The notes: generated by a model from the sequence alone, not told the origin. Numbered from the stretch's first letter, positions 29,885 through 47,645 are shown. The stretch: DNA of 64,000 nucleotides from Candidatus Marinacidobacterales bacterium (GCA_965226495.1 OZ245365.1:6112001-6176000); one strand, 5' to 3'. Translations and numbers: made by a program.

Positions 29885-30802
29885 TCAATGCTCTCCAGCC
29901 GTCGAACGATGGACGGCGAGTGCGACGCCAACAATGACAAGAGCCGCGCCGGCGAGGAGTCGCGGGTGCAGTAGCTCCTCGCCGCGAAGGAGGCCAACCC
30001 CAACCGCGATTAGTGGAATGATGTACGCGGTGAGAGCCAAACGTTTCGCTGGAATAAACGAGAGCAGCCAGTAATAGAGAAAAAACGTCACCGCCGACCC
30101 GCAGATCGCAAGGTAAAGTAGCGCACCGATTGTGTCGGAGTTCCAAACGAGACTCTTTCCACGCTCGAGCCACAGTGCGATGGCTCCCATGACCACTGCG
30201 GTGACGGCCATGGGTCCTCCGGCAAGCGAGAGCGGATGGATATCTGTGCCCCAACGTTTGACGACGATCGTGCCGAAGGCGGCCGATATCGGTGAGAGCA
30301 ACATCACTAGCGCCGCGGCATAGACATTGTGTCCACCTAGTGCGGCGAGGTCTTCGGAGAAGATCACCCCGACCCCGGCAAAGCCGATGACGATGCCGAG
30401 GATCTCGCCGGGAGTTAATCTCTCCCCGGAAAGGACGAAATGGCCCACGCTCGTTACCACGAGTGGATAGATAGCGAACAGGATGGCCGCCAGACCCGAG
30501 GGTACCCACTGTTCGCTCCAATAGACGGCGCCGTAAGCGATGGTGAAAGAGAGAATGCCATTTGCGAACCAGATGGTGATCTCTTTGCGCGTCGTTCCAA
30601 CCTTGATTCCTAGTGCGGCGGCCACCGCGAAAAGAAGTGTCGAGGCGAGTGCGAATCGGATGGCAACGCCGCTGAAGGGTGGGGTGCCGCGGAGCCCCAC
30701 CGCAATGACCGCCCAGGTCGTGCCCCAGATCAGACAAACGACGGTAAAGGCCAGAACAATAAGCAATGTGCTGGGCGGGCGTCTTCCGGTTGCGGCAGGC
30801 AT
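29885..30802 (-). CDS. EamA/DMT family transporter
   Basis: Motifs CLIWGTTW, EQWVPSGLAAIL and LYLAICGSAVTF; about 10 TM helices. Confidence 0.92.
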   Translation of the reverse strand: MPAATGRRPPSTLLIVLAFTVVCLIWGTTWAVIAVGLRGTPPFSGVAIRFALASTLLFAVAAALGIKVGTTRKEITIWFANGILSFTIAYGAVYWSEQWVPSGLAAILFAIYPLVVTSVGHFVLSGERLTPGEILGIVIGFAGVGVIFSEDLAALGGHNVYAAALVMLLSPISAAFGTIVVKRWGTDIHPLSLAGGPMAVTAVVMGAIALWLERGKSLVWNSDTIGALLYLAICGSAVTFFLYYWLLSFIPAKRLALTAYIIPLIAVGVGLLRGEELLHPRLLAGAALVIVGVALAVHRSTAGEH

Positions 30803-31051
30803 GACCCGGCAGTGTAACCATTTCGTTCCGCGGTGGCTCGTGAATGCTCCGGGCAAAAGGCGAAATGACTTGTCCCGATCATATGACCGATGGCGGACAG
30901 GCCGGTCCCAGCGGCGAACAGCCGGACGTCGCCTTCGCGGGCCCGTCTGCCCTATCTCACTGATTTCTAAGGGGGATTTGCCGGGGCCTCATGGCATGAC
31001 CCGTGCATTTGTAGATAATCTACAGGAAGCGTGGACAGGAGGTAGAGACTC

Positions 31052-31762
31052 ATGAAACGAAGAGATTTCATCGCCGGGACCGGCGCCTTAGTTGCGGGGA
31101 TCGCGGCTGCCGGGGCCTCTAGGGCCTACGAGAAGAGAGAGACGGAAGACTTTCCCAGGATCGACCACGCCGCCAGTGAAAAGATCCGTGTCGCGTTCGC
31201 AATGGCAAATGGCCCGACGGTGATCGATTTCGCCGGCCCATGGGAAGTGTTTCAGGACGTCATGATTCCGAGCCCGGGTGGTACGCGCATGCCTTTCGAG
31301 CTCTTCACGGTTGGTGAGAGCCGTGAGACGGTCCGGGCGACCGGCGGCCTCAACATCGTTCCCAATTACACATTCGAGACGGCGCCAACGCCGAACGTCA
31401 TCGTTGTTCCTGCCCTTCGCGGCTCGGAGGCTCTCTTGGAGTGGTTGAGGAGAGCTCACGAGAAGACCGACATCACCACTTCTGTTTGCACCGGTGCGTT
31501 CCAGCTCGCGCGGGCAGGTCTTTTGAACGGTAAGTCTGCGACCACCCACCATGATTTCCTGGACCAACTAGAGAGCAGTTTCCCCGAGATCGATGTGAAA
31601 CGCGGCGTTCGGTTGGTGGACAACGGTGATATCGCTACCGCCGGGGGGCTTACGTCCGGCATCGACATGGCTTTGAGAGTCGTGGCGCGCTACTTTGGCC
31701 CGGAGGTCGCCGAGACGACGGCGTTGTACATGGAGTACGAAGGAAAGGGCTGGAGGTCGTGA
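31052..31762 (+). CDS. Tat-exported DJ-1/PfpI family protein (isonitrile hydratase-like)
   Basis: MKRRDFI twin-arginine signal; [20 protein letters not shown] and [13 protein letters not shown]. Confidence 0.9.
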
Positions 31763-31764
31763 TA

Positions 31765-34197
31765 ATGGGAGCACTCTGGCAGGACGTGCGTTACGGCGCG
31801 CGCGTGCTTGCGTCTAGACCTGGAATCACAGCGATCACCATCGTCACCCTGGCGATCGGAATTGGGGCCAATACGGCGATCTTCAGTGTCGTCCATGGAG
31901 TCTTGCTACAACCCCTTCCCTACGAAGAGCCAGAACGTTTGGTTCTCGTCCGTGCCGATGCCGAGGGACTCGAGTCGATCGCGTCACTATCGGCGCCCGA
32001 GCTCCGAGATCTCGGAGAGCGAAGTCGGCTGTTTGAGGAGTTTGGTGGCGTATGGTCGCAGCAAGCCAGCATCGTCGACGACGAATCCGAGCAGATCTGG
32101 CACGCTTGGGTGACCGCCAACCTCTTCCCGTTACTCGGGGAGGATCCGGTCCTCGGTAGACACTTCTTGCCCGAGGAGGAAGCCGAGAATGGCCCCAATG
32201 TGATGATTCTTGGCTATGGGATCTGGCAACGCCGCTACGGCGGTGATCCGGACATCATCGGGAAACCCATACAGCTCAACGACACCGTTCGTACAGTCGT
32301 GGGAGTGATGCCGGAGCGCTTCCGAATCCTTTTGGGAGATGATACCGGAGTTCCTCCGCGCGTCGATGTCTTCATCCCTCAAAACTTCTGGCAGCAGAGG
32401 AACGTTCGTTGGTTGCGCGTCATCGGTCGGCTGGCTCCTGGCGTAACGCTTGCGCAGGGGCAATCCGAATTGGATAACATCGCCGATAGTCTCGTGGCGG
32501 AATATCAAGAGTACGCCACGACCGGATTCGCGCTACACGCCATTCCTCTTCATGGCGATTTGGTGCGCGACGTTCGCCCTGCTGTTCTAGCTCTCTTGGG
32601 AGCGGTCGGCTTTGTTCTCTTGATTGCGTGTTCGAACGTGGCCAGCCTCTCGCTCGCCCGCACGAAGCTTCGAGAGCAAGAGATCGCCTTGAGGCTGGCC
32701 TTGGGAGCCGGCCAGGGACGCATCCTGCGGCAGGTTTTGACGGAGAATCTCTTACTTGCATTGCTAGGTGGCGCCTTCGGGTTGTTGGTCGCGCAATGGG
32801 GACTCGAGCTCTTACTTGCCTATCGACCGGTGAACCTACCTCGGATCGAAGACATTGGGGTCAATGGAACCGTGTTGGGCTTCACGACCGCGGCTGCTCT
32901 CTTGACGGGCTTGCTCTTTGGGATCGTCCCCGCGTTGCAGGCATCGCGGCTCAGCCTTGGAGAGACACTCAAAGAGGGAGGGCGGGCCACCGGAGCTCAG
33001 GGGGCTCGAAGCCGACAACGACTCCGCAGCGTGCTCGTCGTGTCGCAGGTTGCGTTGTCGTTGGTGCTCTTGATCGGTGCCGGCTTGATGATCCGTACCT
33101 TCACCCGTCTCGCGGAAGTCGATCCCGGCTTCCGTTCCGAGAACCTGTTGACGTTCCACGCGCCGCTGTCCTTCAGTCAGTACTCGACACCGGAGAGTCT
33201 ATGGGGTTTCTATCGAGAGCTCACGGACAGAGTGAAGGTGCTTCCGGGAGTGAAAGCGGCGGGGGCGGTGTCACTTCTGCCGCTCTCTGACCGGCTCTTC
33301 ACCAGCAACTATGCGTATGATCCAGAGACCGAACGGAACTGGGGAACTCTGCCCGCGGACTATCGAGTCATCGTGCCCGGCTACTTCGAAGCCATGGGAA
33401 CAAAACTCGTGTCGGGGCGCTTATTCTCGGACACCGACGCGCAAGTGGAGCGCTCGATCGTCGTCGTCGACGAGACGCTGGCGCATCGGGCCTGGCCGGA
33501 TAGAGATCCGATCCATCAAAAAGTGAAGGTGGATTTTCTCGGACAAAACTCGCCGGAGTGGGCGGAAGTCATCGGGGTCGTCCAACACGTTCGGAACAAC
33601 GAGCTCCGAGAAGACGGGTTGGCCCAGATCTATTTTCCGCTTTGGGCACAGCCGAATTCAGACATGAAGCTGGCGGTCCGTGCCAGTGGCGATCCGATGA
33701 GCCTGATCCCAGCGATACGCCGAGAAGTGAGAGCGATGGACAGCGGCCGTCCCGTCCACACCTTTCGCATGATGGACGGGTACGTGTCAGACGCGATGGC
33801 GGGGACAAGCTTTGCGATGACGCTCCTGGGACTGTTCGCCACGGTCGCATTGGCAATGGCGGCCATCGGACTCTATGGCGTCGTGTCCTATATGGTCAGC
33901 CAACGAACGAACGAAATTGGGATCCGGATGGCGCTCGGCGCCCACCGGCGGGACATCTTTCGAATGGTCCTGGGGCACGGACTGACGTTCGTTCTCTTTG
34001 GCATCGTTCTCGGTCTGGTGGGGGCGCTCGCTTTGACACGCTTTCTTTCTAGTCAGCTCTACGGAGTGGGAGCGACCGATCCTTCCACGTTTGCCGCTAC
34101 TTCTGGGATTCTGGTTGCGGTGGCCCTGTTCGCTTGCTACTTGCCGTCCCGTCGAGCGACCCCTGTCGACCCTATGGTGGTGCTCCGGTATGAGTAG
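31765..34197 (+). CDS. ADOP-family duplicated ABC transporter permease
   Basis: Begins [13 protein letters not shown]...[14 protein letters not shown] and ends [19 protein letters not shown]. Confidence 0.93.
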
Positions 34198-34281
34198 TTC
34201 CACGTGAAGAAACTCACCTGAATCGAGCCCGCTTCGGGACGATCGTTCCCCACCGCGCGGAGGATGATAGAGTGAATCCTC

Positions 34282-35253
34282 ATGGCGCAGTTTGGCGAGC
34301 TCGACGTACGGTTGGAACCGTGGGACGTGGAGTACGGCTCTGAATTTCCTCTGGATGCCCCGGAAGACGTTGGCGACGATGAGGTTTCACTGGATGTCGA
34401 GACGCCCGTCGGTTTATGGGATTCGATCGAGCCTGCGCCCGCGACGATACCGGGGCGTATCCTCTTCGTCGACGGTGTGCGACGGCTAGAGGCGCGGATC
34501 GTCCTGCGCCGCAATGCCAAGCTTTGTCGGGGTGCATTCGGGAGCTATGCGGTGGGCGCGGTCCTCGCAACGCACGGCGATGCGACGATATGTGAAGCGA
34601 GAGCGGATCGGGTGATCGTCGTGGGTTCCGGAGAATCTCTTCCCGAGCCGATCCACCTGATGCCGGCACTGACCTACCGGCCCCTGAGCGTCGTCTCCCA
34701 AGATGTGGACGCGCCGCTTCGAGGCGTCCTCCAGCAAATGCGACTGGCCGAGGAGCGTCTGGCCCGGGAGCTTGCCGACGAGGAGAACACGCTCGTGGTG
34801 GCGGACGGCCCGCTCACGTTCGGAGATCCGCTGCGGGGTGGCGCGGTGGGGTATATCAAGCGCCTTCAGAAACTCTACATTCCCGAGGATAAACTCGATC
34901 TTCTTTCCCGTTTGCCCCCCGGGTCACGGACACCACTTTTCGGTTTGCGATCGAGCAAACGCTTCGCTCGTTACGCTTGGTTTCTTCGATTGGTGGCGCC
35001 TCATCCCGGCGAATCGGAGCTATCGGGTTTGGTTCGCCTCGAAGTCTCCGAATCGGTAGGCGTGCAAGTCGCCAAGGAGCTCGCCGATGCGACCGCCCGA
35101 GCGCTCCCGCGATTCGCGCCGGGTCGTGGTCGCGACCCCCGCGCCCCTCAAAATCTGCTGCCAATCGGCGCTCTGGAATCTCGTCTTCGTCGACACCTCG
35201 GGGACGCCCGGCTCATCCGCCGCCACATTCAAACGCTGCTAGCCCTCAATTGA
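34282..35253 (+). CDS. nurA: NurA-family DNA double-strand-break repair nuclease (bacterial type)
   Basis: Motifs ILFVDGVRR, VVADGPL, VGYIK and DPRAPQNLLPIGALE; co-located with HerA and SbcCD. Confidence 0.8.
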   Translation: MAQFGELDVRLEPWDVEYGSEFPLDAPEDVGDDEVSLDVETPVGLWDSIEPAPATIPGRILFVDGVRRLEARIVLRRNAKLCRGAFGSYAVGAVLATHGDATICEARADRVIVVGSGESLPEPIHLMPALTYRPLSVVSQDVDAPLRGVLQQMRLAEERLARELADEENTLVVADGPLTFGDPLRGGAVGYIKRLQKLYIPEDKLDLLSRLPPGSRTPLFGLRSSKRFARYAWFLRLVAPHPGESELSGLVRLEVSESVGVQVAKELADATARALPRFAPGRGRDPRAPQNLLPIGALESRLRRHLGDARLIRRHIQTLLALN

Positions 35254-36071
35254 TGTCTCTCCGAGTGATTAGTTGGAACGTCAACTCGGTGCGGCTTCGA
35301 TTGCGGGCCCTGCGACGCTTGGTGAAGCGCTACGATCCGCATGTCTTTTGTCTTCAGGAGACAAAAGCAGAGAACGGGTCCTTCCCCTATGAGTTTTTCC
35401 ATCGGCTAGGTTTCGAGTACACGATTGTCCACGGACAGAAGATGCACTACGGGGTGGCCATTTTGTCGAAGCTTCCCTTATCCGATTCTCGGATTAAGAA
35501 TTGGTGCGGCCGGCCCGACTGCCGCCATGTCTATGCCACGCTTCCAGGAGGAATAGAGCTCCATAACTTCTATGTGCCGGCCGGCGGGGACGTTCCCGAT
35601 CCACGAGTGAATCCGAAGTTCGCGCACAAACTGAAGTTCATGGCCGCGATGACGCGGTGGTTCCGCCGGAAGCGCCATCCCGAGAACCGCTACGTTTTAG
35701 TGGGCGATCTGAACGTGGCCCCACACGAGAACGACGTTTGGGATCACAAGAAGCTGAGACGAGTCGTCACTCACACGCCGGTGGAGATAGAGGCCCTTGG
35801 CAAGATGCTCCGCTCGCACGATTGGATCGATGCGGTGCGCCGGTTCGTGCCCGAGGACAAGAAACTCTTCAGCTGGTGGAGCTACCGCGCCGAGAATTGG
35901 AAGGCGGCCGATAAGGGGCGCCGGTTGGATCACGTTTGGGTGACGCCGGCCCTCGGCGATTCACTCAAAGCTGCAGAGGTGCTCAAACGAGCACGCGGAT
36001 GGAGGCCAGCGTCCGACCACGCGCCGGTGATGGTGACGCTCGACCTCGCGTCTCAATCTGGACCGACGTAA
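35253..36071 (+). CDS. xth: Exodeoxyribonuclease III / AP endonuclease
   Basis: Motifs SWNVNS, LQETK, GDLNVAP, FSWWSYR, GRRLDH and ASDHAPV; TGATG overlap with nurA. Confidence 0.95.
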   Translation: MSLRVISWNVNSVRLRLRALRRLVKRYDPHVFCLQETKAENGSFPYEFFHRLGFEYTIVHGQKMHYGVAILSKLPLSDSRIKNWCGRPDCRHVYATLPGGIELHNFYVPAGGDVPDPRVNPKFAHKLKFMAAMTRWFRRKRHPENRYVLVGDLNVAPHENDVWDHKKLRRVVTHTPVEIEALGKMLRSHDWIDAVRRFVPEDKKLFSWWSYRAENWKAADKGRRLDHVWVTPALGDSLKAAEVLKRARGWRPASDHAPVMVTLDLASQSGPT

Positions 36072-36130
36072 GATACGTTCTTGTGGACGCCAAAACGCGA
36101 GGTAGCATAAATCAGGGTGGCCAGGCGCCA

Positions 36131-37843
36131 ATGGCGAAGCCAAAGACCGCTCCAGGCGAAGAGAAGAGGGCCTCGAGGCCGGCGGATAGCGAGCGCGCCG
36201 GGCTTGTGCTCGGCTCGGTGGACGCAACGCCCCTTGAGTTCTGGATTGGTGTCGAGGATGGCCGCCGTGTTCAACTCGACGACCTCGTCGTCGTGGAAAC
36301 GGTGACCCCAGACGGCCAACGCATTCGCTTCTACGGCATGGTCGATGTTGTGAAGAAGCGTTACGAAGGCACGCAGTTCGATTCCGATGCCTTCCGAGCC
36401 GTTGCGGGAACGCTTCCGGTGGAAGTTTCCTATACTGCCCACGTTCAAGTGACTCGCATCGACCCCGAAGTCTTCGTGCCGCCGCACCCCGGCGACGAGG
36501 CCCGGGTCGTCCGGGGAGAGGACTTCCAGCGAGCGCTCTACTTCGATCAGATGGAACGCCGTATCCCGATCGGCATGACGCGGACCAACGAGCCGGTCTT
36601 TGCTAATCTAGAATTCTTGGACGGAACGCGGGGCGCGCATGCCTCGATCAGTGGTGTTTCCGGCGTCGCCACCAAAACCTCCTACGCCACATTCCTCTTG
36701 TACTCTCTCTTTCAGTCGGAGGGACTGGGCGCGGACGCGATCAATTCGAAGGCCCTCATCTTCAACGTAAAGGGTGAGGATCTGCTCTGGCTCGACAAAC
36801 CGAACGTGAGGTTGACCGAGAAGGGGAAATCGGAGTACGAGCGCCTAGGTCTCGAAGCGGGGCCATTTCGCAGCGTCGGTTTCTTCGCCCCCGCCAAGCG
36901 CGCGAGCGTTGTACCGATGCCCGATACCGGAGGAAGACAACAAGGCGTGATGCCCTATCTTTGGACGCTCGGCGAGTTCGCCCGCGAGCGATTGCTCCGT
37001 TTCGTCTTCGCCGAGGGGGAGGACGCTCGGGCGCCGCTTTCCTTCGTCATTTATCGGGTCGAGTCGGCGCTACAGCGCGCGGCTGCCAAAGGCGAGCGCG
37101 ACGATCCGGGGCTCGAACTGGACGGTGTTTCTCTCCGGAGCTTCAGCGAGTTAGTCGATCTTCTCGACGACGAAGCGTTGGATCGCATGGTGCCCCGGAA
37201 CGTCGCCTCCGGCACGCTCGACGCTTTCCGTCGACGACTTCACGCCGCCGCCTCGCACATGGGGCACCTCGTGCGGGGCGATGCGTCTGCCACGGGGTGC
37301 GGGATCAGTTGGGAAGAACAGCAGGTGACGGTGGTGGATATCCATACCCTCCACTCGACGGCGCAGATGTTCGTGGTGGGAGTTTTGCTGAAGCGCATGA
37401 TGGAAAGAAAAGAAGCACAGGGAACTTCGCGCCCATTGGTATTCGTCGTTCTGGACGAAATGAATAAGTATGCGCCGCGTGAAGGGTGGAGCCCCATTCG
37501 CGATGTGCTACTCGACATCGCCGAAAGGGGACGTTCGCTGGGGGTATCTCTCTTCGGCGCGCAGCAGACGGCAAGCGAGGTGGAGCGGCGCGTCATCGCG
37601 AACGCGGCGCTCAAAGTCGTTGGACGTCTCGACCCAGCAGAGGCGGAAAGGGCTCAGTATGGGTTTCTGACCAGCGTGGCTCGCTTGCGTGCGAAGACGC
37701 TGCAGCCGGGAAGTATGATCGTCTCGCAGCCTGAGATCCCCACACCCATTCTTCTTCGGTTCCCTTTTCCCGCTTGGGCCACTCGGCAGAGTGAGGCGGG
37801 TACCGACGAACTAACCGATCCCTTTGCGAGGTTTGAGAATTGA
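36131..37843 (+). CDS. herA: HerA-family ATPase / DNA translocase
   Basis: HAS-barrel-like N-terminus, variant Walker A ISGVSGVATKTSY, Walker B VVLDEMNKYAP, arginine finger ERGRSLG and sensor AQQ. Confidence 0.88.
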   Translation: MAKPKTAPGEEKRASRPADSERAGLVLGSVDATPLEFWIGVEDGRRVQLDDLVVVETVTPDGQRIRFYGMVDVVKKRYEGTQFDSDAFRAVAGTLPVEVSYTAHVQVTRIDPEVFVPPHPGDEARVVRGEDFQRALYFDQMERRIPIGMTRTNEPVFANLEFLDGTRGAHASISGVSGVATKTSYATFLLYSLFQSEGLGADAINSKALIFNVKGEDLLWLDKPNVRLTEKGKSEYERLGLEAGPFRSVGFFAPAKRASVVPMPDTGGRQQGVMPYLWTLGEFARERLLRFVFAEGEDARAPLSFVIYRVESALQRAAAKGERDDPGLELDGVSLRSFSELVDLLDDEALDRMVPRNVASGTLDAFRRRLHAAASHMGHLVRGDASATGCGISWEEQQVTVVDIHTLHSTAQMFVVGVLLKRMMERKEAQGTSRPLVFVVLDEMNKYAPREGWSPIRDVLLDIAERGRSLGVSLFGAQQTASEVERRVIANAALKVVGRLDPAEAERAQYGFLTSVARLRAKTLQPGSMIVSQPEIPTPILLRFPFPAWATRQSEAGTDELTDPFARFEN

Positions 37844-37852
37844 GTACAGGAA

Positions 37853-38719
37853 ATGATTCGACTTTCTTTTCGCCCACCGTATGATTGGGACTCGTTGGTC
37901 GAGTTCCTTTCGGTACGAGCGACCCCTGGCGTCGAGATGGTCGATGAGAGCACCTATCGTCGGACTATTTCACTCGGTGGATATTGGGGTACCTTCGAAG
38001 TCCGCCGGGTTACAAGACGCAACTATCTCGAGCTCGGAATCGACTTTCCCAACCCGCAGAGTTTTCCGTACATCGTTCAAAGGGCGCGTCGACTCTTCGA
38101 CGTCGATACCGACCCGGGGGAAGTTGCACGGCATCTTCGGCAAGACAGGCGGCTCATCGCACTGGTCGATGCGTATCCAGGGCTCCGTGTACCTGGATCG
38201 TGGGATGGTTTCGAGCTCGCGGTGCGAGCCATACTAGGGCAACAAATTTCCGTGAAGGGGGCCACGACGCTTGCCGGCCGACTCGCTCTTGGCTACGGAC
38301 GGAGGTTTCGGAAGGGGGAGTTGGGTGTGTTGTTTCCAACTCCAGAAGTGCTCGCGAAAGCGAATCCAGCCAGGCTCGGACTTCCCCTGGCGAGAGCTCG
38401 TGCCATCCCGCACCTAGCTCGCGCAGTATGTCAGAGGCAGCTTTCCTTTAACGGTGCAGCGGGGCTCCGGCCGTTCGTGGCGCAAATGAAAGACGTGCCG
38501 GGAATCGGTGAGTGGACGGCGCAGTACGTTGCGATGCGTGCGTTGAGTCATCCCGACGCTTTTCCCGCAACGGACCTGGGCCTTTTGCGCGGTGCTTCGA
38601 GTGGAAGCAGGGGACTGAAGCCGAAGACGCTCCTGCAGCGTGCCGAAAAGTGGAGGCCCTTCCGTGCCTACGCGGCCATGTATCTTTGGAAAAACTACGG
38701 AACTCAGAAGAGGAAATAG
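37853..38719 (+). CDS. alkA: DNA-3-methyladenine glycosylase II (AlkA_N + HhH-GPD, no Ada domain)
   Basis: Motifs LSFRPPYDW, PGLRVPGSWDGFELAVRAILGQQIS, HhH VPGIGEWTA, DAFPATDLGL and WRPFRAYA. Confidence 0.93.
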   Translation: MIRLSFRPPYDWDSLVEFLSVRATPGVEMVDESTYRRTISLGGYWGTFEVRRVTRRNYLELGIDFPNPQSFPYIVQRARRLFDVDTDPGEVARHLRQDRRLIALVDAYPGLRVPGSWDGFELAVRAILGQQISVKGATTLAGRLALGYGRRFRKGELGVLFPTPEVLAKANPARLGLPLARARAIPHLARAVCQRQLSFNGAAGLRPFVAQMKDVPGIGEWTAQYVAMRALSHPDAFPATDLGLLRGASSGSRGLKPKTLLQRAEKWRPFRAYAAMYLWKNYGTQKRK

Positions 38720-38722
38720 TCT

Positions 38723-39229
38723 GTGAAGACGCTCCTAGTGCTTCGCCATGCTAAATCGAGTTGGAAGGATCAAGGGCTAGATGACCACGATCGGCCACTC
38801 AACAAGCGGGGAACGAAAGACGCTCCGGTCGTCGGGAAGCTCATCAGCAAGAGGAAACTGACGCCGGATTGGATCCTGAGCTCCACCGCCTTTCGCGCGA
38901 GAAAGACCGTGGAGATGGTGGCCAAGGCCAGCAGGTTCTCGGGGGAGATTGAGTTCGAGGAGGGGCTGTATCTTGCGAGACCGACAACCGTTATCGCAGC
39001 GATTCAAACAGCAGCTCCGCAGTCGGCTGAGACCGTCCTGATCGTTGGGCACAATCCGGGATTCGGAGAGCTGGTCGAGATTCTGACCGGGCAAAAGCAA
39101 CCCTTTCCCACTGCAGCCTTGGCCGAGATAGAGCTTCCCGTCGAGCGCTGGGACGAGCTCACTCCTGAGACGGAAGGAAAGCTGATCGATCTCTGGAGGC
39201 CGAAGGAGCTTGCCGGGGAATCGGAGTAA
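38723..39229 (+). CDS. sixA: SixA-type phosphohistidine phosphatase
   Basis: Motifs LRHAKSSW, DHDRPLNKRG, SSTAFRARKT and VGHNPG. Confidence 0.9.
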   Translation: MKTLLVLRHAKSSWKDQGLDDHDRPLNKRGTKDAPVVGKLISKRKLTPDWILSSTAFRARKTVEMVAKASRFSGEIEFEEGLYLARPTTVIAAIQTAAPQSAETVLIVGHNPGFGELVEILTGQKQPFPTAALAEIELPVERWDELTPETEGKLIDLWRPKELAGESE

Positions 39230-39237
39230 CTGAGCCG

Positions 39238-39597
39238 CTATTCGAGCAAACGTAGTAGGTCCAGAGAACTCACGACACCTACCACCTTGTCTCCGTCGGT
39301 GACCACCATGTGGTGCACGCCGTACTGCCTCATCATTTGGGCGGCGGTGCTCACGTCGGCTTGGGGGGTCACGGTGTAGACGTGGGTGCTCATGACTCGG
39401 GAGATGGGGATCTTCGCTGAGAAGCCCGGGACAAGATCGGTCGAGGTGAGCATGCCTACGAGCTGGTTTTCCTCGTCCACCACTGGCAGGGAGTTGATAT
39501 CGTGAGCCTCCATGAGTTCGCGAACCCCTCCGACGAGGTCGCCCGGCTTGGCCATGATGACATTGGCAGCCATGACATCCGCCACTTTGTGTTTCAA
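39238..39597 (-). CDS. CBS-domain pair protein
   Basis: Two CBS repeats (SLPVVD..LVGMLTSTDL; HHMVVTD..VVGVVSSLDL). TTG start after a GAGGAG RBS. Confidence 0.85.
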   Translation of the reverse strand: MKHKVADVMAANVIMAKPGDLVGGVRELMEAHDINSLPVVDEENQLVGMLTSTDLVPGFSAKIPISRVMSTHVYTVTPQADVSTAAQMMRQYGVHHMVVTDGDKVVGVVSSLDLLRLLE

Positions 39598-39830
39598 GAG
39601 TTGCTCCTCATTGTTGGGCTGGTCTGATGATGGAGCGTAGCCTGAAGGAACTCCCAGAAGCAAATCGAGTCGATTGTCGTGTTCGAACCGCCAGTCTTGC
39701 TGAGGGGGGGGCTCGCCACGGCTTCCCTGAAAACCGTGACGCCGCATAAAGACGCACCCGAAGAGGCGGGTATATGATGCCCCCAGCCTGGGTTTCTGCC
39801 CTGCCTGTTGAAGCCCGGTGAAAAGAAAAT

Positions 39831-41000
39831 ATGCGCATTGTTCACACTAGCGACTGGCATGCCGGGCGGCTCTGGAGGCGCATCGATCGACTTCCCGAAG
39901 TGGCCGATGTTCTAGAAAACTTGGGAGACTTCCTAGAGCGGGAACGGATCGATCTGCTTTTGATGTCCGGGGATGTCTTCGACAGCGGCGCACCCAACCC
40001 GTCCGCCGAGCGGTTGGTCTTCGGCTTCTTCAAACGGATCGGCCGGGCCGGCATCAAGACCGTGGTCATCGCCGGGAACCACGATAGTCCGGCTCGGCTT
40101 CAAGCGTGGGGTACGCTTGCCGAGCTGGTAGATGTGCAGGCGGTCGCTTTTCCGCGGCGCTTGAATGACGGCGGTCTCGTAGAGGTCTCGGCCAGGTCGG
40201 GTGAGAGAGCGCTCGTGGCGGCTGTCCCGTTCGCGGCCCCGCGTCGTCTAATCAGTGCCCTCGACCTTTCCGGTGAAGAGACTCGGGTCAGACAGAAATA
40301 CGACCAGGGAATGAGGCAGATCATCGCGCATTTGGTGAGTGGGTTCGAGCGAGAGACCATCAATCTGGTCATGGCTCACACGCACCTTCAGGGCGCGGTA
40401 TTCTCCGGATCGGAGCGGCAAGTCCACCTCGGAGAAGAGTGGGCGACCACGCCGCAGGCTTTACCTTCGACCGCGCACTACATTGCGCTCGGCCATATCC
40501 ACCGACCGCAGAAGGTAGAGGCCGCACCGGCTCCTGCTTTCTACGCCGGTTCTCCCCTGCAGCTCGATTTCGGCGAGGTCGGTGAGGAGAAAACCTTTGT
40601 TTTGATCGATGCCCGCCCGCGACAGCCGGTTCAAGTCGAGCAAATTCCTTATAAAGGAGGGCTGCCGCTCCGGTCGGTTCGCAAAGGGCTTTTAGAGTTG
40701 GAGCGAGAGGCGGGGAGTTTGTCCGAAAGAGGTTGGTTGCGGGTGAGAGTCCCGCTGAAAGTGGCGGACCCAGACGTCAATGGTAAGGTGCGGCGGTTAC
40801 TTCCGAATGCGGTGTCGGTCGAGATTGAGCTTCCTGAGAAAGCGGAAGAGCAAGACGGTTCGCGTCTCCCGGGCGGCTCCCCGCCGCGGGAGCTCTATCA
40901 AGCCTACTGTCAGAAGGAGCACGGTTCGGAGGGAGAGCCGCAGGTGGTCGAGATCTTCGACAAACTGCTGGCCGACGCGGATCAGGGCGATGCCGGATAA
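39831..41000 (+). CDS. sbcD: SbcD / Mre11 nuclease subunit
   Basis: Phosphoesterase motifs HTSDWH, GDVFD, GNHD, AHTH and LGHIH. Confidence 0.95.
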   Translation: MRIVHTSDWHAGRLWRRIDRLPEVADVLENLGDFLERERIDLLLMSGDVFDSGAPNPSAERLVFGFFKRIGRAGIKTVVIAGNHDSPARLQAWGTLAELVDVQAVAFPRRLNDGGLVEVSARSGERALVAAVPFAAPRRLISALDLSGEETRVRQKYDQGMRQIIAHLVSGFERETINLVMAHTHLQGAVFSGSERQVHLGEEWATTPQALPSTAHYIALGHIHRPQKVEAAPAPAFYAGSPLQLDFGEVGEEKTFVLIDARPRQPVQVEQIPYKGGLPLRSVRKGLLELEREAGSLSERGWLRVRVPLKVADPDVNGKVRRLLPNAVSVEIELPEKAEEQDGSRLPGGSPPRELYQAYCQKEHGSEGEPQVVEIFDKLLADADQGDAG

Positions 41001-41054
41001 CCAAAGCAGTACAAGACCCGCGGTGCCCGTACTCCAACCAGAGGCCCGACGCCT

Positions 41055-44000
41055 GTGAGACCGCGGCGACTTACCGTCGAGGGTTTCACCTGCTTCAAGG
41101 AGCGCCAGGATCCGCTGGATTTCTCCGAGCTCGAGCTCTTTGCCATATCCGGCCCTACTGGTGCGGGTAAGTCGAGCCTACTAGACTCGATCATCTTTGC
41201 CCTCTATGGCCGGGTCCCTCGCATGAGGAAGGGATACTCGGAGCTCATCTCCCTCGGTCTCGATCGCATGTCGGTGATGTTGGACTTCCAAGTTGGACGG
41301 AGGGAGTTTCGAGTTACCCGAACCGGACGTCGAGGGCGTTCGGCCGAGGCTCAACTCGATGAGCTGGTGAACGGGACCGAGCGCTCGGTCGCGGGTGGCG
41401 TTCACAGTGTGGACAAGGAAATCGTTCGACTCCTCGGTCTTCGCTACGAAGCGTTCACGCAGGCGGTCGTTCTCCCCCAAGGCGATTTCGCCCGCTTCCT
41501 GAAGAGTCAACCGCGTGAACGGAGGGAGATCCTGCGCGATCTCCTACGTCTCCAAGTCTACGAGTCGATGAGGAGACGGGCCGCCGAGTGCGCCAAAGAT
41601 CTGGAGCTCAAGCTAAGCGGTGTCCGGGAGCGGCTGAGCGAAGACTTTGGCGAAGTGAAGCCGGAGCGAGCGGCGGAGCTCCGCCGACAAGTCCGAGCAC
41701 TCGAAAAGCAAACTCACAAAGCATCCGAAGAATTGGCTTCGCTTCAGAAGAAGCTCGAAGAGATCCGGGTCCGCTACGCAAAATCTAGAGAACTCGAGGA
41801 GAAGAGGGGCAGGCTCAAGGAGCTGAATAAGCGCGAGTCAAAAATTGAGGCCGATGAGGACAAGCTCGCTGCGGCCAGGGAGGTCGCGCCGCTTGTTCCG
41901 CTTATGGATGCGGCGGCGGCGAGTGAAGGGCGGGCGGAAGCAGAGCGCAAGCGGGCCTTTGAGGCGAGCAGCGAGCTCGGTGAGATTCGTCGCGTGCACG
42001 AGCAATCGAGCCAGAAACTTGCGGAGGCGATTCGACGCGCGGACGAGCTGCCCGCGCTGCAAGAGAGAATCCGAGCGCTCGACGAGCTCAAAGGTCTTCT
42101 CGCCCCAAGAAGGGCTGCCCAGCGCCGAAGAGATGATGCCCGCGGGCAGCAGGAGAAACTGCAGCAGGAGATCCAGCGGGTCGACAAAGACAAGCTGCGA
42201 CTCCGGCAGGGAGCAGAAAGTTTCGAGGGTGAGGTGGAAGTCGCTAGCAAGAACTGCGAGGCCTCGGGGTATGACGAGAGCTTAGATCGGCGATTAGATG
42301 CAGCTCGTGACAGCGCCGCATCGCTTGCTGCCGACCGCAGGACAGCGCGGCAAGTTTTGGCAGAAAAGGAAGAAGCCGAAGAGCGCGTAGCTCGAGCGCG
42401 AGAGAACGCGTCGACACAAAAGACCAGGTTGGATAAGTTGCGCCAATCGTTCCTCAGATGCGAGAGAGCCCGAAAAAAGCTCGAAACCGACCGTCGAAAG
42501 GCGGAAGCAAAACATGCGGCGGCGCATCTTCGCGATGAACTCGAGAAAGGAGGGAAATGTCCGGTCTGTGAGCAGCCGGTGTCGAAGCTTCCTCCGGCGA
42601 TCGAGGTGGCGTTTCTCGACGACACCGCGTCCCGTTTGGACAAAGCGGTTAACTCTGAAGAACAGGCGCGTTCCCTTCTAGAGGAGGGGGCCGAAGCGGA
42701 GGCGGAAGCCCGGGCCGCCGCGATGGCGTTCGAGAAGGAGCTTGCCAAGGCCGACAAAAAGTGTACCCGTCTGGAGCAGGCGATAGAGCTTGCCGAGCGT
42801 GCACTCGAGAAGAAAGTCGGTGATGGAACGACCGGTGATCGAGGGTCCCATGTGGAAGAACGAATCCTTTCCGCGGTTAGCCGGGTTGCGAAGGAGCGCG
42901 AGGCCCATCAAGAGGCGACGAGGGAGCTGGACAAGGCGGAGAAGGAGCTCCTGAGGGCACGGAGTGATCTCGAAGCGTTGACCGAGGAGTCTCGACGGCT
43001 CGAGCAGCAGGTGCGAGACGCTACATCGCGGGCCAAGGAAGCGGAAGAGGAACTCTTCGAGCTCGAGGAAAAGATTGGCAAGGTTGCGGGAGATGCGGAG
43101 CCGGCGCGGGAACGCGATCGTCTAGCGGAAGAGAGAATAGAAATCGAGCGCAACCGCAAGGCAGCCGAGGAAGCCGAGCGACGGACAGGGAACGAGTTTT
43201 CATCCGCTAAGAAGGCGCTCGAAGAGGCGGAGCGCACCGCGCAGGTATCCACTCGAGCCTTGCTGGAAGCTCAGAGGAAGGTCGAAGAAGCACTCCAGTC
43301 TGCGGGGATTAAGAAGGCAGAAACGATTCGGGGTGCGGCTCTTCCGGCGGTGGAGATGAGTCGTTTAGAAGAGGAGATCAGGTCTCATCGTCAAGAGCGC
43401 CATACGACCGAGCAACGAATGTCAGAACTCGAAACGGAGCTCGAGGGTCATGCCGTCACGGAGCATGCCCAGCGTCACGCGGAGGAGGAAGCGGTATTCA
43501 AGCGTCGCGACTACGAGGACGGCATCGAGAAGAAGGCCGAGCTAGAACAGCAGATCAAGGAGATCGAGCGCCGAATGGAGAGAGCGGCCGAGCTTTCCGC
43601 TCAGAAGAAGAGTTTGCAACAAGAGTTTTCCGTTTACCGGCGGCTTGCGACCGATCTTCGAAGCGAGAACTTCCAGGCGTATTTGCTCGAGGAAGCCTTT
43701 CGAGAGTTGGTCAACGGGGCGTCGATGCGGCTCGAGAGCTTGAGCGGACGCTACTCGTTAGAGTATCAGCAAGACGGCTTCCACGTGCTCGACCACGACA
43801 ACGCGCGCGAGCGAAGAAGTGCCGACACGCTTAGCGGTGGCGAAACATTTCTTGCTTCGCTGGCCTTGGCACTCGAGCTCAGCGAGCAAATACAACGCGC
43901 CGCCGGCGCGGTGAATCTGGATAGTCTCTTCATCGACGAAGGTTTCGGGACTCTCGATCCCGAGACCTTGGACACCGTGGCCAGCGCCATCGAGTCTCTA

Positions 44001-44123
44001 CACGTCGGAGGTCGCATGGTCGGCATCATCACTCACATCCCCGAGCTGACTGATCGACTACCGGCCGCTATCCGCATCGAGAAGCACCCTGAAGGCTCCC
44101 GTATCCGACAGGAACTCCTATAG
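41055..44123 (+). CDS. sbcC: SbcC / Rad50 SMC-like ATPase
   Basis: Walker A GPTGAGKSS, Q-loop LPQGDF, long coiled coil with central CPVC zinc hook, LSGGE and FIDEGFG. Confidence 0.95.
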   Translation: MRPRRLTVEGFTCFKERQDPLDFSELELFAISGPTGAGKSSLLDSIIFALYGRVPRMRKGYSELISLGLDRMSVMLDFQVGRREFRVTRTGRRGRSAEAQLDELVNGTERSVAGGVHSVDKEIVRLLGLRYEAFTQAVVLPQGDFARFLKSQPRERREILRDLLRLQVYESMRRRAAECAKDLELKLSGVRERLSEDFGEVKPERAAELRRQVRALEKQTHKASEELASLQKKLEEIRVRYAKSRELEEKRGRLKELNKRESKIEADEDKLAAAREVAPLVPLMDAAAASEGRAEAERKRAFEASSELGEIRRVHEQSSQKLAEAIRRADELPALQERIRALDELKGLLAPRRAAQRRRDDARGQQEKLQQEIQRVDKDKLRLRQGAESFEGEVEVASKNCEASGYDESLDRRLDAARDSAASLAADRRTARQVLAEKEEAEERVARARENASTQKTRLDKLRQSFLRCERARKKLETDRRKAEAKHAAAHLRDELEKGGKCPVCEQPVSKLPPAIEVAFLDDTASRLDKAVNSEEQARSLLEEGAEAEAEARAAAMAFEKELAKADKKCTRLEQAIELAERALEKKVGDGTTGDRGSHVEERILSAVSRVAKEREAHQEATRELDKAEKELLRARSDLEALTEESRRLEQQVRDATSRAKEAEEELFELEEKIGKVAGDAEPARERDRLAEERIEIERNRKAAEEAERRTGNEFSSAKKALEEAERTAQVSTRALLEAQRKVEEALQSAGIKKAETIRGAALPAVEMSRLEEEIRSHRQERHTTEQRMSELETELEGHAVTEHAQRHAEEEAVFKRRDYEDGIEKKAELEQQIKEIERRMERAAELSAQKKSLQQEFSVYRRLATDLRSENFQAYLLEEAFRELVNGASMRLESLSGRYSLEYQQDGFHVLDHDNARERRSADTLSGGETFLASLALALELSEQIQRAAGAVNLDSLFIDEGFGTLDPETLDTVASAIESLHVGGRMVGIITHIPELTDRLPAAIRIEKHPEGSRIRQELL

Positions 44124-44910
44124 TGAGTATCCGGAAACCCGCCGACCTCACGATCGCAGCGACGTTACGCTACCTCGAGGAATACTTACCCGCCGGCTCG
44201 CGGATCCTGGACGCCGGATGCGGGGGGGAGAGCTCGCGCTTAAGTTGAAGGACGCGGGGCATCGCGTGACGGGCTTGGACGTGGACGGGCGAGAAGTGGA
44301 AAAGGCCCTCGCCCTGGGCGTTGAGGCGAGACAAGCGGATTTCCTCCACTTGGAAGGAGAACCCTTCGACGCTATCGTTTTTAGTTTTTCGCTTCATCAC
44401 ATTTTTCCGTTGGCTGATGCGCTGGAGCACGCCGGGCGCCTCCTCGCTCCCGGTGGGCTCGTTCTCGCAGAAGAGTTCTCTTGGGACGAAATCGACGCGG
44501 GTACGGCGCGGTGGTTCTATGAAATGTGGTCTCTGCTCGAGACTTGCGGCGTGCTCTCGGAGGAATACTCGGCAGGAGGCGAGCACCACGGCGATCACGC
44601 CCATGGAGGTTACGCTCACGGCGCGACGCCGGCGGCGCCCCAGACTCCTCTCGAGGAACGGATCGCGGAGCACGACCATGAGCCGCCGCTCCACAAGGGC
44701 CATGAGATGCTGGAGGGAGTCGAGCGCCGCTTCGATATGGTGAGTTCGGAAAGCGTCCCGACTTTGTTTACGGACTTTGCCGCTGCCTTGGAGCCGACCG
44801 AGCGAGGGTACGCAGTTGCCTTTAAGCTCCAGGAGCTCGAGAGAAGCTTGATCGAGGATGAGGCCATCGTGCCTGTGGGGCTCCGCATGGTGGCGAAAAA
44901 GAAGGCCTGA
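44123..44910 (+). CDS. Class I SAM-dependent methyltransferase, frameshifted at a G7 tract (44222-44228)
   Basis: GTG overlapping the sbcC stop reads ...RILDAGCG. One extra G restores G-GELALKL...VTGLD...FDAIVF..SLHH. Confidence 0.8.
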
Positions 44911-45033
44911 CTACCTGTTGACGGCTTGCCAATTTCTGTCGAGCTGGATCCTTCGGTGCACGCCAGAGTGGCTCTTACGGGGGACAGGAAGGAAAGCTAG
45001 AATCCCCAATAAAGATGATAGGGAGGAAAAAAG

Positions 45034-47034
45034 GTGACCACTAAGCTCGTCGATACCACTTGCGCTATGGATTGCCCGGACGCGTGCTCGCTCGAAGTGA
45101 CCGTCAAGGACGACATCATCGAAGGGATTCGGGGTCACGACGACCATCCGACGAGCGGGGGGTTCATTTGCTCCAAGGTTACGCAGTTCTCACGCCGCGT
45201 CTATCATGACTCGCGGCTTCTCCACCCGATGAGGCGTAAGGGTGTAAAGGGCGATGAGGAGTTCGAGCGGATCTCGTGGGAAGCGGCGATCGGCGAGATC
45301 ACGGACCAGTTTCGGAGAATCGCGGGCGAGTGGGGGCCGGAAGCCGTTCTGCCCTATCACTACGGCGGCTCGAACGGCGCGCTCAGCGACGATTTTTCCG
45401 ATAGCTTATACTTCGCGCGCCTGGGCGCCTCCCGGCTCGCGAAGACGATTTGCGCAGCACCGACTTCCGAAGTCGCGCAGGGCATGTACGGCAAGATGCC
45501 GGGAGTGGCCTTCGAGGATTACCGCGAGGCTAAGTGCATCATTATATGGGGTGCGAATCCTAGGGCATCCAATATCCACCTGGTTCCGTTTCTTCAGGAA
45601 GCGAAACGTCGGGGTGCGTTCATCGCGGTCGTCGACCCCAGGAGGAACTTGTCCGCGGGCCTGGTCGATCTGCACCTCCCGATCTTCCCTGGGACAGATC
45701 TCCCGGTAGCACTGGCAATGATCCGCTACTGGAACGAGCAGGGAAGGCTCGACCGGCCGTTTCTCGACGGCCACAGCGTCGGTCTCGACGCACTCTTGGA
45801 GAAGGCGGCTCCATGGACTATCGACCAAGCGGCGGCGGAGGCACGCGTCAATCCGGAAGCGATTCGACGGCTGGCGGATGTGTACGCTGCAACGTCTCCG
45901 GCGGTGATGCGGTGCGGATGGGGCGTCGAGAGGAACCAGAACGGAGGGCAGGCGGTCGCCGCGGTTCTGGCGATGCCGGCGCTACTCGGCAAGTTCGGGC
46001 CTCGCGGTGGCGGCTATACGTTGAGCAATCGAGGCGCGTTAAAGGTGGATTCGAATCAGATATGGGACGAGTCGAGCTGGCAAACCCGTATCATTAATAT
46101 GACCGAGCTCGGCAAGGTCCTCAACGATGACCTTTCACCACCCATCAAGGGCCTCTTCGTGTATAACGCCAATCCCGCTGCAACGGTACCGGATCAAAAC
46201 GCGGTGCTTACCGGTCTCGGCCGCGAAGACTTGTTTACGGTCGTTTTCGATCAGGTCATGACGGATACGGCTCGTTACGCAGACATTCTCCTGCCCGCCA
46301 CGACGTTTCTCGAGCACGAGGATATCCGGGCTGGCTACGGTGCCTATGTTGTCGGCGGTGTTCGGGCCGCCATCACGGCCCGTGGCGAGTCCCGGTCCAA
46401 CCACGACGTCTTCTCGGCGCTCGGTCGCGCGATGGGCTTCGAGGACGAGGCGTTTTCTTGGGACGGCGCCGAAGCGCTCAGAAGAGTCGCCGCCACGATG
46501 CGGTTGAACGGGAAGCAAGCGGACCCCGTCTTGCTCGAAGCGGGCAAGCAGCAGAGGTATAACTTTCCTGGGGATGCACCGGTGCAGTTCGAGTCGGTGT
46601 TCCCGCAGACTTCGGATCAGAAGATCCACCTCACACCCGCAGCACTCGGACCGCGGTCGTACGAATATCGACCGGTCCAAGATCCGGACTACCCGTTGGC
46701 ACTTCTCACTCCGGCAATGGCGAGAATGACGAATAGCACCTTCGGTGAGTGGAGCTATCCCACCTTGGAGGTCACCATCCATCCACAAGACGCCTCGACA
46801 AGGGGTATCGATAGTGGCAATATCGTGCGCGTTCACAATCGGCTAGGAGAAGTACACTGTCGCGCTCGGGTGAGTGATAGCACTAGAGTCGGGGTCGTCA
46901 GCATTCCGAAAGGTGCTTGGATGAAGTCTTCCGAGAACGGCCGCACCGCAACCGCTCTCTGCCCACCGACCGTCGATAACGTAGGCGCGGGTGCCTGCTT
47001 CAACGACGCCCGCGTCGAGGTGGAGGGGATTTAG
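45034..47034 (+). CDS. Molybdopterin-dependent oxidoreductase, catalytic subunit with an N-terminal 4Fe-4S motif
   Basis: Motifs CAMDCPDAC...ICSK, IWGANP, TDTARYADILLPATTFLE and a C-terminal dinucleotide-binding domain. Confidence 0.92.
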   Translation: MTTKLVDTTCAMDCPDACSLEVTVKDDIIEGIRGHDDHPTSGGFICSKVTQFSRRVYHDSRLLHPMRRKGVKGDEEFERISWEAAIGEITDQFRRIAGEWGPEAVLPYHYGGSNGALSDDFSDSLYFARLGASRLAKTICAAPTSEVAQGMYGKMPGVAFEDYREAKCIIIWGANPRASNIHLVPFLQEAKRRGAFIAVVDPRRNLSAGLVDLHLPIFPGTDLPVALAMIRYWNEQGRLDRPFLDGHSVGLDALLEKAAPWTIDQAAAEARVNPEAIRRLADVYAATSPAVMRCGWGVERNQNGGQAVAAVLAMPALLGKFGPRGGGYTLSNRGALKVDSNQIWDESSWQTRIINMTELGKVLNDDLSPPIKGLFVYNANPAATVPDQNAVLTGLGREDLFTVVFDQVMTDTARYADILLPATTFLEHEDIRAGYGAYVVGGVRAAITARGESRSNHDVFSALGRAMGFEDEAFSWDGAEALRRVAATMRLNGKQADPVLLEAGKQQRYNFPGDAPVQFESVFPQTSDQKIHLTPAALGPRSYEYRPVQDPDYPLALLTPAMARMTNSTFGEWSYPTLEVTIHPQDASTRGIDSGNIVRVHNRLGEVHCRARVSDSTRVGVVSIPKGAWMKSSENGRTATALCPPTVDNVGAGACFNDARVEVEGI

Positions 47035-47037
47035 TTT

Positions 47038-47645
47038 GTGAAACTCCCAAGACGTTCTCTGTTAGTGCTAGGTCTTCTCGTCGCGCTCTCGCACTCCGTA
47101 GCCGGCCGCGAGAAGTTTCCCGGCCGTATCGATGGTGAAGACCGCATCGGCGAAGCGGCACCACCCTTCGAGCTCAGTGCGTGGTTGAACTCGGATCCGC
47201 TGGAGCCAGGCGACTTGAACGGCAAGGTGCTACTCGTTCGTTGGTGGACCGACACCTGCCCGTTCTGCTCTACGACGGCGCCGGTGCTGCGGGAGCTCGA
47301 TCGCAAGTACAGGGATCGGGGCCTCCGGGTCATCGGGATCTTCCATCCCAAGCCGCCGGGCGATAGAAGCTTCGAAAGGCTGCGGCGCGCGACGGAGCGT
47401 TTCGGTTTTACTTTCCCAGTTGCGCTCGACTCGGATTGGACGGCTCTACGTCGCTGGTGGCTCGACCGTGAGGAGCAGGCGTGGACCTCCGTTTCCTTCG
47501 TCGTCGACAAACGGGCGTTATCCGCTACGTGCACCCGGGCGGTGAATACCATCTGGGTGAAGCTGGCCTCCATTGGCGGAACCACGAAAGCTGCCATCGC
47601 GAATATCGCGAGATAGAAGACACCATCCTCCAGCTCCTTGATTAA
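47038..47645 (+). CDS. TlpA-like thiol-disulfide redoxin, apparent 1-nt frameshift at about 47513
   Basis: WWTDTCPFC motif. Adding one G to AAACGGGCG gives VVDKRGVIRYVHPGGEY...ILQLLD* ending at 47645. Confidence 0.8.

Follow-up and report, generated by a model that had tools for sequence, protein, structure and literature searches.

The cluster and its genes

A window of 64,000 nucleotides (nt) from Candidatus Marinacidobacterales bacterium (GCA_965226495.1 OZ245365.1:6112001-6176000) carries, at positions 34282-44910, genes for the nuclease NurA, the hexameric ATPase HerA and the Mre11-Rad50-type pair SbcD-SbcC, together with five further genes. Here we describe this cluster, which had been singled out in a first-pass annotation made from the sequence alone, and the recurrence of its four-gene core, nurA, herA, sbcD and sbcC, across bacteria. 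All coordinates are those of the window, and the genome to which it belongs (G000 below) is a single contig of 6.34 Mb that is 94.8% complete by markers. The host is an acidobacterium, as had been supposed, and open reading frame (ORF) listing and family scans recovered all nine of the genes originally named, at or near where they had been placed:

34282-35253, + strand: nurA, Deinococcus-type NurA nuclease, 323 amino acids (aa)
35253-36071, + strand: xth (xth2), second, divergent exodeoxyribonuclease III copy
36131-37843, + strand: herA, bacterial HerA hexameric translocase/ATPase, 570 aa
37853-38719, + strand: alkA, DNA-3-methyladenine glycosylase II
38723-39229, + strand: SixA-like histidine phosphatase gene (sixA below), His_Phos_1 match
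39238-39747, - strand: CBS-pair protein gene, Pfam CBS in two stretches
39831-41000, + strand: sbcD, Mre11-type nuclease
41055-44123, + strand: sbcC, Rad50-type SMC ATPase, 1022 aa
44124-44910 (ORF 44218-44910), + strand: S-adenosylmethionine (SAM)-dependent methyltransferase, frameshifted, probably a pseudogene

The tight junctions described at first pass were all found when read from the sequence. The nurA and xth genes overlap in TGATG (nurA stop TGA 35251-35253, xth ATG 35253-35255), 9 nt separate herA from alkA (herA stop 37841-37843, alkA ATG 37853), and 3 nt separate alkA from sixA (alkA stop 38717-38719, sixA start GTG 38723). By ORF coordinates the CBS gene and sixA converge with 8 nt between them, and the CBS gene and sbcD diverge from an 83-nt spacer. 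Lying on the opposite strand, it separates nurA-xth-herA-alkA-sixA from sbcD-sbcC, and the four core genes do not form one co-transcribed unit in the window. The locus thus comprises at least two transcription units, split by the CBS gene, and the tight spacing suggests that nurA-xth-herA-alkA-sixA is probably read as one transcript and sbcD-sbcC as another.

Contigs from three other public runs, belonging to three studies, cover 34180-38515, 34000-37894 and 37406-45100 with 0 differences and 0 gaps. Since these contigs are identical to the window, the nurA-xth-herA arrangement is not an assembly artefact. From the sole RNA run (X20) came 7 contigs, 151-238 nt long and each with 0-8 differences, on sbcD and sbcC; since DNA carry-over is possible, they do not count as a sign of expression.

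Identity of the four core proteins

The nurA product gave no Pfam match even at E 10, and none in NCBIfam or PADLOC. It falls outside the Pfam NurA family (PF09376), which among the matches listed is carried by 6 of 120 homologues. HerA likewise had no Pfam match even at E 10 and, because Pfam is silent on both proteins, their identity rests on solved structures. Over residues 7-320, NurA matched the D. radiodurans NurA structure 7f6d_H at E 1e-31; a second match, at E 6.7e-11, was to TM1739 (1zup), an RNase H-like protein of Thermotoga. An AlphaFold2 model built on a 34-sequence alignment (pLDDT 89.2, pTM 0.87) returned 7f6d_G as the top Foldseek match (E 3.3e-20, TM 0.72), with further matches to 1zup (TM 0.64-0.70), S. 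solfataricus NurA 2ygk (E 7e-5, TM 0.43) and TdpAB. The RNase H-like fold, on which the original identification hung, is therefore present in the model. The acidic residues of motif I and motif II (‘DG’), as these are defined in the motif description of PMC13748450, are both in place. D64, within FVDGVRR, aligns with D53 of the D. radiodurans protein (DrNurA), whose D53A mutant is reported to be catalytically inactive (PMC4663267). In motif II, VVADGPL, D175-G176 is invariant in the 34 aligned sequences, and R68, K193 and E254 are likewise invariant. On sequence and predicted structure we assign the 34282-35253 product as a true NurA of the bacterial (Deinococcus/Thermotoga) type. The blank in Pfam, NCBIfam and PADLOC is a gap in the models and not an absent fold, and PF09376 misses this branch.

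For herA, translation more likely starts at ATG 36131 (570 aa) than at TTG 35936, the start of the longest ORF, because residue 20 of the 570-aa product is where the match to D. radiodurans HerA (DrHerA) sets in and because 45 nt around that start survive in a sister genome. The protein aligns with the DrHerA structure 7f6d_B at E 1.1e-150, residues 20-556 against 12-601. Its Walker A stretch GVSGVATKTS equals DrHerA ISGISGVATKTS, in the region of K175/T176, save for one V/I change, and its Walker B LDE (VVLDEMNKYAP) aligns with the D487/E488 region, these being the Walker residues given for DrHerA in PMC9960219. Similarity to the HerA models of PADLOC and NCBIfam was weak and confined to the C-terminus. 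Against the curated NCBIfam equivalogs NF040937, NF040819, NF042943 and NF042944 the protein scored 10-15 bits, where the cut-offs are 800-970. By its homology, we place the 36131-37843 product as a HerA of the bacterial branch of the FtsK-HerA superfamily.

SbcD scored 180 bits against TIGR00619, above the cut-off of 77.65, and is encoded by a single copy in the whole genome (one match). SbcC reached 319 bits against TIGR00618, below the cut-off of 478.5, and matched Pfam AAA_23 and SbcC_Walker_B. Bacterial models fitted both proteins better than archaeal ones, with E 1e-54 versus 1e-13 for archaeal Mre11 and E 6e-95 versus 7e-36 for archaeal Rad50, a difference of at least 40 orders of magnitude in E-value. 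The SbcC sequence conforms to the plan of a split ABC-type ATPase head, a long coiled coil and a central CxxC hook. GPTGAGKS lies at residues 33-40, CPVC at 502-505 of 1022 aa, and LSGGE and LFIDEGFG near the C-terminus; we take these to be the P-loop, the zinc hook and the C-terminal ABC motifs, respectively. What we take to be the phosphoesterase motifs of SbcD are also in place. These results confirm that Mre11-Rad50-type SbcCD, a true NurA and HerA are encoded in one intact locus.

Linkage of herA, nurA and sbcDC across bacteria

Three sets of loci were compared: 20 kb around herA in 14 relatives; 80 bacterial loci, one genome per species; and 10 sbcD loci of relatives without herA. A locus was counted as informative when it held at least 1500 nt downstream of herA, which was the case for 73 of the 80. 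In 64 of these 73, sbcD follows herA within 500 nt and on the same strand; in 4 it is further downstream and in 5 it is absent. Among relatives outside the genus, herA and sbcD are linked in 11 of 12 informative loci. The four-gene core is thus conserved in relatives and far beyond, and its genes are not juxtaposed by chance.

Of the 80 loci, 26 have nurA upstream of herA and 33 have it downstream of sbcC; in the other 21, mostly on cut contigs, it was not seen. From these counts we conclude that the four-gene cluster exists in bacteria in two stable gene orders. In the first, nurA-herA-sbcD-sbcC, SbcC is about 1020 aa long, and the carriers are Vicinamibacteria-type acidobacteria, Solirubrobacterales, genomes labelled Chloroflexota and Myxococcota, and a cyanobacterial plasmid. 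In the second, herA-sbcD-sbcC-nurA, SbcC is about 790 aa long, and the cluster occurs in Acidimicrobiia, Nitriliruptorales, Saprospiraceae, some acidobacteria and a Streptomyces plasmid. This second order is presumably that of Sulfolobus.

Clustering of the neighbouring ORFs, made without L014 (own genus) and L033 (same record as L012), gave no fifth conserved neighbour. The two ORF clusters that follow the four genes in size (33 and 14 loci) are, to judge by where their example ORFs lie, long antisense frames over sbcD/sbcC, and the next real family, glucose/sorbosone dehydrogenase, occurs in 9 of 91 loci. As a separate observation, six loci from metagenome-assembled genomes (L032, L034, L035, L036, L037 and L040) have a HerA 67-74% identical to that of the window. 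They are labelled Spirochaetia, Gammaproteobacteria, Planctomycetia and Alphaproteobacteria, and their SbcD group with the Vicinamibacteria-type sequences in the 20-row clade of the tree described below; either horizontal transfer or mislabelled bins would account for them.

The first-pass annotation had called the cluster archaeal-style. This holds for its gene content, since the herA-mre11-rad50-nurA operon of thermophilic archaea encodes the same four functions together (as outlined in PMC2288612 and PMC13748450). It does not hold for the proteins, which are of bacterial types by the SbcD and SbcC models and by the nearest solved HerA and NurA; archaeal S. solfataricus NurA is a distant fold match only. 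Unlike in the archaeal operon, nurA stands first, and an opposite-strand gene and inserted base-excision genes interrupt the unit. No archaeal-type sequences that would point to transfer from archaea were found among the four.

Nor is the four-gene core without precedent, contrary to the earlier view that no characterised system was known to have the gene set. A nurA-hepA-sbcD-sbcC arrangement in Oceanithermus profundus was noted by Blesa et al. (2017; PMC5448004), who likened its architecture to that of the archaeal break-repair system. There too a bacterial HerA (HepA) has sbcD and sbcC directly downstream. The passage in question reports the layout as a single case and explains it by secondary recruitment of SbcDC, whereas we find it in 64 of 73 informative loci under many phylum labels and, in the order to which the window belongs, repeated loss of herA/nurA seems likelier than their gain. 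In the full-text literature we found no conserved bacterial herA-nurA-sbcCD operon described beyond the Oceanithermus remark, supplements and two 2004 papers lying outside the search. A 2026 review (PMC13748450) describes bacterial nurA as lacking such synteny, and our survey contradicts that statement for a large branch of bacterial NurA. Evidence for a four-gene operon that is common in bacteria and poorly annotated is the main by-product of this work.

The encoded pair resembles D. radiodurans NurA-HerA (7F6D, 7WRW/7WRX) in full-length homology, the unusual SGVATKT Walker A, Walker B, the NurA fold and the catalytic Asp. It differs in being linked to sbcD-sbcC and in having xth inserted between nurA and herA; the Deinococcus nurA-herA pair is not known to adjoin sbcCD. 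Work on bacterial NurA-HerA has, according to PMC13748450, PMC9960219 and PMC4663267, been confined to the proteins of D. radiodurans and T. thermophilus. Its role there is unclear and its tie to SbcCD open, the link to sbcCD having, in the words of PMC4663267, ‘remained to be uncovered’. Our survey bears on that tie, and lends genomic support to SbcCD and HerA-NurA working together in bacteria as in archaea. Carriers that could be used for testing include the cultured Salinilacustrithrix flava and Thermoflexus hugenholtzii, besides the Streptomyces and cyanobacterial plasmids.

The additional genes of the locus

Xth2 scored 180.8 bits against TIGR00633 (cut-off 99.05) and 175.4 bits against TIGR00195, just under the cut-off of 182.55, with a Pfam Exo_endo_phos match at E 7e-32. 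The genome's other xth, at C1:3846931, scores 264.9 bits where the cluster copy scores 180.8. AlkA matched Pfam AlkA_N at E 8.5e-36 and HhH-GPD at E 1.9e-6, and reached 192.5 bits against PRK10308, below its cut-off of 229. The SixA-like phosphatase matched His_Phos_1 at E 3e-9 and scored 59.1 bits against TIGR00249 (cut-off 74.5), and is placed only in the His_Phos_1 superfamily, not as a SixA equivalog. The CBS protein matched Pfam CBS at E 2.8e-27.

The first-pass annotation took these genes for additional partners of the end-resection proteins. None of xth, alkA, sixA, the CBS gene and the methyltransferase gene was found in any of the 80 bacterial loci or in any of the 13 relatives' loci outside the genus, and in sister species the extras have been gained or lost independently of nurA-herA. 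The alkA gene stands beside sbcDC only in the window's own genus and family. On these comparisons of gene content we regard the extra genes as family- or genus-level insertions, passengers and not conserved partners, and the window's locus itself adds little beyond the survey, its extra genes being local insertions.

A working partnership, in which xth2, AlkA and the SixA-like phosphatase couple base excision to end resection, would nonetheless explain why the junctions are so tight, a 1-nt overlap and gaps of 9 and 3 nt implying co-translation or co-transcription. Xth and AlkA catalyse successive steps of base excision on damaged DNA, xth2 is a divergent paralogue additional to the housekeeping gene, and the ancestor of the genus already had xth (below). 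Such coupling appears improbable when set against the comparative data. No extra gene occurs in any of the 93 homologous loci outside the genus; sister species G002 lacks xth, yet its nurA and herA are under purifying selection; sister species G001 keeps alkA-sixA-CBS-sbcDC without nurA-herA; and in genome G005 the xth2 orthologue, 64% identical, lies 1.3 Mb from sbcD.

History within the genus and family

In G001 the gene order is DJ-1, MacB, scar, alkA, sixA, CBS (- strand), sbcD, sbcC. The scar preserves the end of MacB as far as the nurA ATG and then 45 nt, 93% identical, from the ribosome-binding-site region and first codons of herA, joined to the start of alkA; nurA-xth-herA has therefore been deleted in G001. 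In G002 the order is nurA, herA, alkA, sixA, CBS, sbcD, sbcC, methyltransferase, oxidoreductase, and the nurA-herA spacer keeps a 53-nt remnant of the 3' end of xth. Thus, xth was present in the genus ancestor and has been deleted in G002. We also note that herA and sbcC of G002 (L014) are each read in two or three frames, in an assembly of 3 contigs with 9% contamination; these frame breaks may be either real decay or assembly indel errors.

The deletions in G001 and G002, the interrupted frames of herA and sbcC in G002 and the frameshifted methyltransferase next door could together mean that the locus is a decaying remnant, with HerA-NurA on its way out of the genus and without a current role. 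We consider this very improbable. In the window nurA, herA, sbcD and sbcC are intact with all key residues, the sequence is identical in the contigs of three other runs, and the G002 frame breaks may themselves be assembly errors. Ratios of nonsynonymous to synonymous substitution (dN/dS) between G000 and G002, at 0.05 for herA and 0.11 for nurA (the lowest of the cluster), 0.15 for sbcD and 0.21 for sbcC, further indicate ongoing constraint. By these ratios the four genes are constrained where they are kept.

An SbcD tree was made from 89 rows with a quick IQ-TREE run, leaving out matches of fewer than about 300 query residues or with stops; it is unrooted, midpoint rooting serving for drawing only. 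The six SbcD of the window's own family form one clade (support 99), although four of them come from HerA-less genomes. This clade sits within a 20-row clade (99) that is otherwise made up of 12 loci where nurA lies upstream of herA and of 2 cut loci with nurA unplaced. The stand-alone SbcD of the neighbouring family nest among the SbcD of herA-sbcD-sbcC-nurA loci. Repeated loss of herA/nurA around a retained sbcDC would be the simplest reading, which we offer as an inference because the tree is unrooted and was made by a quick method.

Other resection systems in the genome

The cluster had been thought to represent a RecBCD/AddAB-independent machine. This was not borne out, as the genome carries two pairs of AddB-like (PD-(D/E)XK) and AddA-like (UvrD/RecB) genes, at C1 ~2,937,600-2,944,400 (L125) and ~3,779,300-3,785,500 (L126). 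Both pairs have AddA/AddB models as best matches, though below the equivalog cut-offs, and RecC was not found in the genome. After the second pair comes an ORF of 1005 aa without an NCBIfam match. On these findings and the RecJ counts below, HerA-NurA-SbcCD adds to AddAB-type resection, and is neither its replacement nor a specific stand-in for RecJ.

Neither RecJ (TIGR00644) nor any DHH domain was found in the single-contig genome of the window. Among the 61 class genomes sampled (own and 60 relatives), RecJ is missing from 57, with or without HerA, and was found in 4. We considered the absence of RecJ as a reason for the presence of HerA-NurA and rejected it, since RecJ is missing across the class regardless of HerA. 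The data point separately to a lineage-wide lack of this nearly universal bacterial exonuclease.

Proposed role of the four proteins

By analogy, the function of the four proteins would most likely be DNA-end processing or resection. From homology to the Deinococcus and archaeal complexes, SbcD-SbcC may recognise, open or clean blocked or hairpin DNA ends, after which a HerA hexamer would pump the duplex into a NurA dimer. NurA would then degrade mainly the 5' strand, leaving a 3' tail for RecA. In the window's own family this operon was broken up, with alkA, the SixA-like gene and the opposite-strand CBS gene coming to lie between herA and sbcD and a second xth copy inserted between nurA and herA, and HerA-NurA appears dispensable enough to be lost repeatedly while sbcDC is kept. 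Taken as a whole, we favour with moderate confidence that the locus encodes a bacterial four-protein DNA-end machine, derived from a widely conserved operon, joined by passenger genes and working beside AddAB-like complexes.

Several observations weigh against this picture. In the window's genome HerA-NurA and SbcCD no longer share one transcription unit, and in a scan of 33900-45200 the promoter-like (1) and terminator-like (11) sites did not outnumber those of shuffled sequences. The history of loss draws on the quickly built SbcD tree with its midpoint drawing. It is somewhat unlikely that two base-excision genes landed in a break-repair operon by chance, which leaves room for a local functional link. 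HerA is patchy, with a strong match in about 15 of 60 relatives (a count of listed rows) and, at E <= 1e-30, in 10 of 401 phylum genomes sampled, own one included, a distribution as compatible with an accessory function as with repair. Finally, the account given in PMC4663267 has D. radiodurans nurA mutants growing faster and resisting mitomycin C better, and NurA-HerA contributing little to radioresistance. Because of these phenotypes, resection for repair is insecure even for the characterised relatives.

The same mutants, which are not repair-deficient (PMC4663267), are compatible with a module directed mainly at foreign DNA, degrading linear or unprotected incoming DNA in phage or plasmid defence. 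We regard defence as unlikely overall. It is a serious rival all the same, given those phenotypes in relatives and a module of patchy occurrence that has been lost repeatedly and is at times carried by plasmids. The 2026 review (PMC13748450) states that bacterial NurA-HerA mainly degrade viral DNA. HerA-effector systems (Sir2-HerA, DUF4297-HerA) and TdpAB resemble the module in combining a HerA-family hexameric ATPase with a nuclease or other effector, and the NurA model also matches the TdpAB complex (chain 8wfd_G, E 1e-4). Closely similar HerA proteins, 70-76% identical, are found under the labels of several phyla. The family is very large in metagenomes: 7982 of 8000 scored candidates matched HerA at E <= 1e-50, and the NurA homologue search gave 1292 matches, with source names on close homologues including Binataceae, Armatimonadota, Planctomycetota and Sorangiineae.

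Mobile elements speak on both sides. The four-gene cluster is present on two large plasmids, a linear plasmid of Streptomyces sp. BB1-1-1 (L127) and a conjugative plasmid of the cyanobacterium Sphaerospermopsis (L128), where HerA and NurA are annotated only as ‘ATP-binding protein’ or ‘hypothetical protein’. The Streptomyces cluster adjoins TIGR02680/TIGR02678/DUF2397 genes and an ImmA/IrrE peptidase gene, the former families being presumably those of the Wadjet defence system. In all, however, only 6 of 72,556 plasmid records match, four at 44-51% identity of which one is chromosome-sized, and only 2 phage records do, both weakly and partially.

The proteins and their surroundings also argue against defence. 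No known system in PADLOC (HerA-effector, Lamassu LmuB, MADS mad2/3/8) was recovered. The partial matches were to mad8 (E 1.5e-12) and to HerA models, the latter weak and local (E >= 1.5e-5, the best named model at E 1.5e-5), and there were none for NurA or Xth. The SbcC matches to LmuB (2.6e-21) and mad3 (6e-20) reflect generic SMC-head similarity in a comparison where the other mad/Lmu genes were not searched genome-wide. NCBIfam anti-phage HerA models scored 12-15 bits against cut-offs of 800-850. Unlike the HerA-effector defence systems, whose models HerA resembles only weakly and in its C-terminal part, the module has a true NurA as effector and SbcCD as partners, the linked SbcD being the genome's only one. 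The flanks are housekeeping genes, a DJ-1/PfpI gene and a MacB-type permease upstream and a molybdopterin oxidoreductase downstream; they are syntenic in sister species, and the G+C content of the region is flat.

We tentatively put forward, as a possibility and with less confidence than the DNA-end machine itself, a joint account of these findings. Far from being peculiar to archaea apart from isolated bacterial cases, NurA-HerA-SbcD-SbcC would be a widespread, probably old bacterial operon with two stable orders, one of them matching what is presumably the archaeal order, and would have gone largely unrecognised for want of Pfam and NCBI models that reach bacterial NurA and HerA. It may behave as an accessory cassette around sbcDC, repeatedly lost and sometimes plasmid-borne, and in this acidobacterial class, where RecJ is missing from most genomes sampled, would provide the sole nuclease, AddAB aside, that is dedicated to 5'-3' resection. 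Within the genus it may have been a landing site for base-excision genes, giving a composite repair island.

Neighbouring features

The methyltransferase gene is frameshifted in a run of seven G at 44222-44228, and the ORF 44218-44910 represents only its 3' part. Its SAM motif I, in the first ~35 codons, is read in another frame that starts right after sbcC and meets a stop near 44246, and the Methyltransf_11 match begins at profile position 8. The orthologue is intact in G002, and the contigs from the three other runs agree with the window letter for letter, without an indel. The gene is probably a pseudogene and lies outside the machine. Further out, two ORFs without a Pfam match flank the region, at 30540-31055 (+ strand, 171 aa) and 47031-47597 (- strand, 188 aa).

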